Shown here: positions 6,020 through 6,085 of the stretch, in pieces
Layout of the letters: each line of letters starts with the position of its first letter
How positions within the stretch are numbered: the stretch's first letter is position 1
Virus record (IMG/VR): IMGVR_UViG_2568526635_000006
Location: 1 to 20,485 of that record
Reading direction: 5' to 3' (one strand)
Length of the DNA: 20,485 nt
Source of the DNA: a virus
Taxonomy: Duplodnaviria; Heunggongvirae; Uroviricota; Caudoviricetes
Notes under the pieces: model-generated
What the model saw: the letters and a program-made list of their open reading frames with translations, nothing else
Database searches by the model: none
Told to the model about the DNA's origin: nothing
Program-made: the position numbers and the translations under genes

Positions 6020-6036
6020 ATTGCTCTAATAATTCC
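6020..6036 (+). promoter_or_regulatory. C1-operator-like 17-mer, left copy of an inverted pair
   Basis: ATTGCTCTAATAATTCC matches the consensus at 14 of 17 positions, directly after the stop at 6018. Confidence 0.4.
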
Positions 6037-6044
6037 ATATTTTT

Positions 6045-6074
6045 AAAACGTGATGTACACTCATCACGTTTTTT
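6045..6074. terminator. Bidirectional rho-independent terminator hairpin
   Basis: AAAACGTGATG-tacact-CATCACGTTTT with an A-tract on one side and a T-tract on the other, nested between the two inverted operator-like sites. Confidence 0.55.
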
Positions 6075-6085
6075 ATTAGAGCAAT
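6069..6085 (-). promoter_or_regulatory. C1-operator-like 17-mer, right inverted copy
   Basis: Minus-strand reading ATTGCTCTAATAAAAAA (14 of 17). Together with the 6020 site it forms a 12-bp perfect inverted repeat, TTGCTCTAATAA / TTATTAGAGCAA, around the terminator. Confidence 0.4.

Follow-up and report, generated by a model that had tools for sequence, protein, structure and literature searches.

The pmgQ-pmgR junction of a P1-like phage-plasmid as a compact operon boundary with two C1 operators, a predicted terminator and a weak candidate promoter

A 66-bp element at positions 6020 to 6085 was analysed in a 20,485-nt stretch of P1-like phage-plasmid DNA (the whole stretch is referred to as the window). 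With a probability of roughly 0.7, this element is the Op86a/Op86b control region, an operon junction into which a terminator, a promoter and two C1 sites are packed. Identity to annotated P1 and P7 sites carries the assignment of the operators. For the terminator, fold energies, strand bias and covariation among relatives were used, and for the promoter, hexamer scores and conservation of the hairpin loop.

Locus and C1 operator pair

At the locus of the element, the window shares 98% identity with P1. Identity is likewise 98% to the P1 relatives P7, SJ46, RCS47 and JL22, and to about 690 plasmid records, mostly of E. coli IncY-type phage-plasmids. One base just 3' of the second operator sets the window apart from most relatives (AATTTACAAGG vs AATCTACAAGG). 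Upstream, pmgQ (5317-6018, plus strand; hdmD in P7), identified from the ORF list and the P1/P7 annotation, is the last gene of the pmgL-...-ppp-pmgQ operon, which carries its own C1 operators Op82 and Op83 plus a late promoter (LPpmgL). The element is situated between the pmgQ stop codon (TAA, 6016-6018) and the pmgR start codon (ATG, 6100). A Shine-Dalgarno-like AAGGTG for pmgR (6090-6095, plus strand) was found by eye 4 nt ahead of this ATG. An ORF of 70 aa (5886-6098, minus strand) runs across the element. One frame is open through all 66 nt in every lineage, but with the element itself conserved this carries no information.

The downstream unit (6100-7582, plus strand; shtA/shtB in P7) consists of pmgR (6100-6318) and pmgS (6320-7582). 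Terminators were scored with a d'Aubenton-Carafa-type d-score. On the 3' side of pmgS, the terminator scan and the sequence revealed a strong intrinsic terminator (7602-7636, plus strand) with an 11-bp stem, T7, a dG of -17.6 and a d-score of +12.6; its P1 counterpart reached +31.8 with the scanner's best stem. Since this terminator intervenes, pap (7655-8161), which lies beyond it, is probably a separate unit. The earlier note had set the site between the operon of the phosphatase gene and a next operon extending from 6100 to 8161. Its first half is correct in that the site separates the ppp-containing operon from the gene at 6100, but 6100-8161 is probably not one transcription unit.

The plus-strand 17-mer ATTGCTCTAATAATTCC (6020-6036) is identical to P1 82152-82168, the C1 operator Op86a (OpmgRa). 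The minus-strand 17-mer ATTGCTCTAATAAAAAA (6069-6085) is identical to P1 82201-82217 (minus strand), the C1 operator Op86b (OpmgRb). Between their facing edges lie 32 bp (6037-6068), and their centres are 49 bp apart. P1 record AF234172 labels OpmgRa a 'monovalent C1-controlled operator', formerly Op86a, for pmgR and pmgS expression, and lists OpmgRb as former Op86b. In the P7 record AF503408 the same two sites are named Op(sht[a]) and Op(sht[b]). The pair is thus already known, as a named, textbook component of the C1 regulon in P1 and P7. The earlier note had called the composite element unusual, a description that does not fit a pair which the GenBank entries of P1 and P7 have listed since 2004 as controlling the pmgR-pmgS (sht) operon.

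The P1-type C1 operator consensus is the asymmetric 17-bp sequence ATTGCTCTAATAAATTT (PMC8546580). Six matches to it with at most 3 mismatches were found in the window, with 0.15 expected. For weight-matrix scoring, a PWM was trained on 18 of the 20 C1 operators that the P1 annotation lists, Op86a and Op86b being left out. Op86a scored 21.1 bits and Op86b 19.6 bits. The training operators themselves were mostly in the range of 15.7-27.9 bits (16/18; Op99c 14.3, Op99b 6.6), and outside the operators no site in the window scored above 8.45 bits. At or above 19.6 bits, 7 sites were present in the window as compared to 0.013 in shuffled windows. The 5 sites besides Op86a and Op86b are of operator grade, so a C1 regulon is present. 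Every available sequence test identifies both 17-mers as C1 operators, and the weight-matrix scan proposed in the earlier note, which had described them as C1-operator-like, places them far above background. C1 binding to Op86 is something we take to be covered by the literature of 1987-1995, beside the GenBank note 'former Op86a/b'. A P1-type c1 gene is not encoded in the window. P1 homology stops at 19831, where a c4/icd/ant-like module follows, and c1 is presumably encoded past the end of the window.

The operators contain a perfect 13-nt inverted repeat, ATTGCTCTAATAA (6020-6032) and TTATTAGAGCAAT (6073-6085), with 40 nt between the arms. It had been noted before as a perfect 12-bp repeat, which was right in symmetry and orientation and one nucleotide short in length. 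Perfect 13-nt inverted repeats with a loop of 3-60 nt occurred once in the window and 0.003 times on average in 300 dinucleotide-preserving shuffles of it. The repeat was not taken for the end of a transposon or MITE, given that its arms are a C1 consensus found singly elsewhere and that its position is fixed between orthologous genes.

Hairpin, U-tract and their conservation

Op86a is followed by a T-rich spacer. Between the operators, fold energy and covariation define a putative terminator hairpin on the plus strand (6045-6072) with a 5' arm at 6045-6055, a loop at 6056-6061 and a 3' arm at 6062-6072. The 11-bp stem is perfect (AAAACGTGATG / CATCACGTTTT), the 6-nt loop reads TACACT, and a T6 run is located at 6069-6074. 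The stem consists of a 7-bp core (CGUGAUG/CAUCACG, 4 G-C pairs) lengthened by A-U pairs. The hairpin has an MFE of -13.4 kcal/mol (z -5.0). Stem energies on the plus strand are -8.5 kcal/mol for the core and -12.9 kcal/mol for the full 11 bp, and U6 is followed by AUU. The U-tract TTTTTTATT (6069-6077, plus strand; T-score 4.76, d-score +10.7) coincides with positions 9-17 of Op86b.

The hairpin is one of only 21 sites with a positive d-score in the whole P1 genome, both strands included. Three of these 21 predicted terminators have an operator (Op53, Op86, Op88) no more than 60 nt away, an adjacency that is expected because operators and terminators are both confined to scarce intergenic DNA. 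Only the Op86 terminator is nested between two operators. A simple terminator scan of the window passed over the hairpin at 6045-6072, because its stem runs into the T-run, and Rfam at gathering thresholds gave no match at the junction. The P1 record, which holds 0 terminator features, leaves the hairpin unmarked; published P1 maps show Rho-independent terminators.

For comparison, relatives were gathered by PmgS protein homology and not by motif. The set comprised 59 metagenome loci, 80 viral loci, Cronobacter phage JK004 and a Salmonella Newport plasmid, and pairing statistics were calculated from 54 distinct sequences. A PmgS-based scan of genome contigs yielded just two near-identical loci. 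Plasmid matches with 20-23% identity to PmgS were left out, being too distant for C1 operators to be expected. In lineages with a PmgS identity of 68-75%, both operators and the hairpin are kept. A consensus operator is also found there at the Op88-equivalent position, which indicates that the C1 consensus is in use in these lineages. Operator spacing is constant at 64 nt core to core, with one extra base in a few variants, while the intervals between stop codon and Op86a, Op86a and hairpin, and Op86b and ATG have diverged. The stem sequence in the 68-75% lineages is replaced by CATGGTG/CACCATG or CATGGTG/CGCCATG. Overall, 98.8% of the hairpin cells were paired, as compared to 40-54% in slid controls. 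Two stem pairs are changed on both sides (G-C to A-U and A-U to G-C). These compensatory changes represent few events, perhaps one or two, since the same seven sequences carry both, and they may date from a single lineage split.

Folding is biased towards the plus strand. The d-score is +10.7 on the plus strand versus -20.7 on the minus strand, where the tail UUUUAAAAAU has only four U followed by A's. Among distinct variants, the stabler hairpin is formed by the plus strand in 20 and by the minus strand in 3. In the JK004-like lineage, fold energies are -13.6 to -14.0 kcal/mol on the plus strand versus -5.8 kcal/mol on the minus strand. RNAalifold returned a consensus hairpin for the plus strand and none for the minus strand. 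One-sided variants comprise 9 kinds that form G-U pairs in plus-strand RNA, several of them in many loci, versus 4 kinds that give A-C there and would be G-U on the minus strand. The counts of 9 and 4 kinds are not significant alone (binomial estimate of about 0.13), and the fold-energy asymmetry was relied on instead.

This strand bias points to a function at the RNA level in rightward transcripts, and it counts against a bidirectional terminator as well as against a protein-bound DNA palindrome. Convergent genes are missing at the site, pmgQ and pmgR both being on the plus strand. The terminator proposed by the earlier note is therefore supported on the plus strand by the hairpin, the T-tract and the positive d-score. 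Its designation as 'bidirectional' was dropped in view of the minus-strand d-score, the degraded minus-strand fold in natural variants and the lack of a convergent gene. Likewise, a minus-strand function was rejected, as the hairpin is below terminator grade there and its fold is not conserved. The comparisons support the hairpin with its T-tract as a selected RNA structure, which would act in termination. Given the modest core (7 bp, -8.5 kcal/mol), this termination may be partial.

The bases shared by operator and U-tract differ from those of other operators. In all lineages the 3' end of Op86b is AAAAAA. Its position 15 is A, where 17/18 other operators have T. The 3' end of Op86a drifts between lineages (TTCC, TTTT, TTTC). 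This pattern suggests a double constraint on Op86b, in which the terminator U-tract would override the operator optimum.

Candidate promoters of pmgR-pmgS

PpmgR is annotated in the P1 record (82153-82181) as a predicted sigma-70 promoter. In the window it corresponds to 6021-6049 on the plus strand, with -35 TTGCTC at 6021-6026, a 17-nt spacer and -10 TAAAAC at 6044-6049. The -35 hexamer falls inside Op86a. The -10 hexamer is without its final T (-7) in every lineage (TAAAAC, TAAAGC, TGAAGC), and its conservation is explained by the fact that it belongs to the A-tract pairing with the U-tract. A second candidate promoter (6033-6061, plus strand), which had the top sigma-70-like score, is composed of -35 TTCCAT at 6033-6038, a 17-nt spacer and -10 TACACT at 6056-6061, in the hairpin loop. 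Its -35 hexamer starts at operator position 14-15 and overlaps the 3' end of Op86a. With a crude scoring based on consensus hexamer frequencies of the Harley and Reynolds type, the arrangement with the loop -10 ranked first in 7/7 lineage representatives and the annotated PpmgR geometry 3rd to 27th. In the window, this candidate would set the start near 6068-6069. The loop variants are TACACT, TACGCT, TATCAT and TATTAT, of which T1, A2 and T6 are constant and the three middle positions vary. Such a TAnnnT pattern fits a -10 hexamer, and constraints on closing the hairpin could be its source too.

Both promoter candidates are weak, and the position is split between two geometries. Neither passed a consensus promoter scan, and they score 5-10 bits in the crude model. 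With either candidate the transcript begins inside or after the hairpin and lacks the 5' arm, so that it cannot terminate at its own promoter. Relative to the start, Op86b would extend from about +1 to +17 or from about +13 to +29, depending on the candidate. Two further promoter types were considered at the junction. A promoter that would run leftward from the TTGCTC of Op86b was rejected, as the -10 sequences at spacers of 17, 16 and 18 (AGTGTA, GAGTGT and GTGTAC, respectively; by eye) are unacceptable. The 11 annotated late promoters of P1 have a -22 box AAGTGACTT in common. Inspection of 6000-6100 by eye found nothing similar to an Lpa-type arrangement of this box, 4 nt and a -10 hexamer, and an Lpa-dependent late promoter was ruled out by the missing box.

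The low promoter scores can also be read as the absence of any promoter. The operators would then be roadblocks or insulators, and pmgR-pmgS would depend solely on the sigma-70 and late (LPpmgL) promoters further upstream, whose transcripts would run through a leaky terminator. Besides the failure of both candidates in the consensus scan, the lack of a -22 box in the junction speaks for this, since pmgR is nevertheless a morphogenesis gene needed late, as does the finding that several C1 operators begin 1-4 nt past an upstream stop codon. It is opposed by the persistence of TAnnnT in all four loop variants although the three middle positions vary, and by the first rank of the loop -10 arrangement in every lineage representative. 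The operators Op51, Op68, Op94 and Op99e are similarly placed at mapped promoters, with the -35 starting from operator position 15-17. Furthermore, CRISPRi roadblocks in pmgO, pmgP, ppp and pmgQ caused no plaque defect, whereas pmgR is essential by deletion, so upstream roadblocks are not polar for plaque formation. Direct CRISPRi knockdown of pmgR likewise failed, which makes the fit of these data to a pmgR promoter of its own a weak one. Taken together, we regard a junction without a promoter as unlikely, and retain a weak promoter within the Op86a/Op86b control region.

A dual use of the 28 bp of the hairpin is tentatively considered, with odds clearly against it. As RNA, they would be the terminator for pmgL-pmgQ transcripts; as DNA, the TAnnnT loop would be the real -10 of pmgR, with the start in the first T-tract bases inside Op86b. 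If so, the annotated PpmgR would be misplaced and outgoing transcripts would be terminator-proof by construction. C1 would clamp the promoter on both sides (-35 and +1), and initiation in the T6 run could add UTP-sensitive reiterative transcription.

Proposed working of the junction and comparison with known systems

In the proposed working of the Op86a/Op86b control region, the intrinsic terminator on plus-strand RNA would end pmgL-ppp-pmgQ transcripts 27-60 nt past the pmgQ stop codon. A weak sigma-70 promoter, with a start predicted inside or just past the hairpin, would drive pmgR-pmgS. Its own transcripts, having no 5' arm, would form no hairpin and escape termination. The two inverted asymmetric C1 sites would sandwich the promoter core, Op86a over the -35 region and Op86b on the start or immediately past it. 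With Lxc as co-repressor, C1 would sit on both sites in the lysogen and keep pmgR-pmgS off by occupancy. Once C1 is inactivated, the promoter would fire and the terminator would insulate the two operons from each other. Downstream, the terminator at 7602-7636 would close the pmgR-pmgS unit.

Alternatively, in keeping with the coupling of repression to termination that the earlier note had suggested, C1 on Op86b might act with the hairpin on termination instead of on a promoter. Bound over the U-tract it would set termination efficiency, which would make the element a repressor-gated bidirectional terminator. The overlap of Op86b with the U-tract, invariant in all lineages, and the weakness of the annotated promoter are in line with this. 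On the minus strand, however, the d-score is negative and selection to fold is missing. The geometry is also unfavourable. Elongating RNA polymerase has a downstream footprint of roughly 18-20 bp. The polymerase front would therefore meet C1 at 6069 with the active site near 6050, before the hairpin exists, and C1 on Op86a would halt polymerase even earlier. Bound C1 would thus pre-empt rather than assist termination. In addition, two C1 operators, Op82 and Op83, already belong to the upstream promoters. On this geometry, coupling between C1 binding and termination is unlikely; the two are more likely alternatives, belonging to the lysogen and to lytic growth, respectively, than coupled steps. 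A C1-gated terminator is accordingly given a low probability, and control of a promoter by occupancy of Op86a and Op86b remains the preferred reading.

The whole 66-nt repeat can also be folded into one long RNA hairpin, which in read-through transcripts might serve in RNase III processing or as an mRNA-stability element. Its MFE is -26.9 kcal/mol (z = -10.7), with an outer 13-bp stem and the inner stem, and RNAalifold gives a two-tier structure on the plus strand. Yet the outer arms are fully explained by the protein-binding consensus, which is single elsewhere in the genome, and the outer stem needs read-through of the terminator to form. In the relatives the outer stem has 0 two-sided changes, and its five one-sided variants (3 pair-keeping vs 2 pair-breaking) give no signal of selection. 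Such a role is considered very improbable. The notion of the inner palindrome as a DNA site for a dimeric protein can be practically discarded: its perfect 11-bp dyad symmetry, preserved as a DNA palindrome by the compensatory changes, would be compatible with such a site, but the arm sequence itself is exchanged between lineages, one-sided variants are mostly G-U on plus-strand RNA and A-C on the other, the G-U ones recurring in several loci, and a plus-strand fold stabler in most variants is a bias that a DNA site would not be expected to have.

The closest known counterparts of the Op86a/Op86b control region are OpmgRa/OpmgRb of P1 (AF234172 / NC_005856) and Op(sht[a])/Op(sht[b]) of P7 (AF503408), with the same 17-mers, the same 64-nt core and an identical position between pmgQ and pmgR. 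The P1 record differs from the element described here in that it has a predicted promoter and no terminator. Two inverted asymmetric C1 sites at one promoter are likewise found in the bivalent P1 operators Obanab (Op72ab) and Oc1ab (Op99ab). In these, a 6-bp overlap joins the 17-mers into a 28-bp unit, whereas the pair in the window is 32 bp apart with the hairpin in between. A bivalent operator of the Op72ab/Op99ab type was ruled out, as the sites are separated by 6037-6068. At the P1 ban promoter the operator's own TTGCTC is the -35, a precedent for the annotated PpmgR geometry. For the alternative geometry with the loop as -10, similar arrangements are Op51/P2c4, Op68/Pdmt, Op94/Plpa and Op99e/P4cre, where the -35 begins at operator position 15-17 (14-15 for Op86a). 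These promoters have one operator each, while the window adds an inverted second operator over the predicted start.

Intrinsic terminators of E. coli and its phages resemble the hairpin in several respects: a stem-loop with U6 right after the stop codon at an operon end, an upstream A-tract that pairs with the U-tract, and a positive d-score. The hairpin in the window differs from them in its core of only 7 bp (4 G-C, -8.5 kcal/mol), in a U-tract that lies within a repressor site and in its -10-like loop.

The junction is a compact yet conventional operon boundary, real and mostly ordinary, and of little significance outside P1 biology. Beyond the P1 record, the analysis adds a hairpin selected on the plus strand only, as indicated by covariation and strand bias, the bases shared between operator and U-tract, and a candidate -10, located in the loop, that is better conserved than the annotated one. 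If confirmed, the element would combine terminator, operator and promoter in a compact natural insulator, about 66 bp long, which may be of interest for P1 phagemid engineering and for the design of synthetic operon junctions.

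Exchanged segments relative to P1

Homology of the window to P1 was interrupted from position 8350 and returned at 14592. In this region, the pmgT-humD segment of P1 (P1 84483-87969) was replaced by a type I restriction-modification cassette (8426-14491, minus strand). Its gene products were HsdR, HsdS and HsdM of 1038, 422 and 520 aa, respectively; HsdR carried an EcoR124_C domain. According to a remark in the P1 record itself (GenBank AF234172), this segment has flanks resembling those on either side of the EcoDXXI/R124 hsd loci. P1 therefore looks like the 'empty site' of the hsd cassette, or like a phage in which a module was swapped at that place. 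A perfect inverted repeat (8381-8410; arms CTTGCGGGTT...AACCCGCAAG of 11 nt, 8-nt loop) was located immediately past the hsdR stop codon. It was rejected as a canonical terminator, since no T-tract followed it on either strand.

At the right end, the last P1-homologous position was 19831, directly after pacB. P1 continues with c1 downstream of pacB, whereas the window carried other content (19832-20485). Here, an operator-grade site absent from P1 (TTTGCTCTAATGAATTG, 19833-19849, 19.6 bits), an isrK-like RNA (19924-20002) and a C4 antisense RNA (20047-20134, Rfam RF01695) were found. The segment is a second immI-like c4/icd/ant module, as likewise carried by RCS47 and JL22.

Possible recombination around pmgQ-pmgS and a predicted terminator upstream of pap

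For a set of plasmid records, alignment to the window began only at query position 242, corresponding to window position 5841 within pmgQ. This start suggests a recombination breakpoint at about 5841 and alternative 5' parts of pmgQ. Two metagenome contigs retrieved by PmgS homology (L171 and L181) encoded PmgS proteins with 97-99% identity, but at the expected place of pmgR and of the Op86 junction (the operator pair between pmgQ and pmgR) their sequence was unrelated; these contigs are possibly rearrangements or assembly chimeras. Between pmgS and pap, a strong intrinsic terminator was predicted on the plus strand (7602-7636; 11-bp stem including 6 G-C pairs, followed by T7), which is not annotated in P1. 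No promoter is annotated for pap.

C1 operators in P1 and in the window

The number of C1 sites is given as 22 in a recent paper, whereas 20 are annotated in the P1 record (AF234172, locus L004). In this record, two unannotated operator-like sites were detected on the plus strand, one between cre and c8 (1485-1501, ATTGCTATAATTATTTG, 18.3 bits) and one within darB (17166-17182, ATTGCCCTAATGTATTT, 16.6 bits); both score like weak operators. Omat (Op2b) is recorded there on the minus strand with a length of 18 nt (2628-2645). Because its match to the C1 consensus lies on the plus strand (CATGCACTAATAAATAT, 2628-2644), the recorded strand appears to be wrong.

In the window, Op88/OpmgT (8161-8177, plus strand) carried a G4 to A exchange (ATTACTCTAATAAATCT versus ATTGCTCTAATAAATCT in P1) and nevertheless scored 23.1 bits. 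Several C1 operators overlapped the stop codon of the preceding gene or started within 1-4 nt of it. Such sites at gene ends were located at window positions 6020 (after pmgQ), 8161 (pap), 16526 (pdcB) and 19833 (pacB), and at P1 position 51575 (repL). This arrangement looks like a placement of operator or operator-promoter cassettes directly at gene ends.
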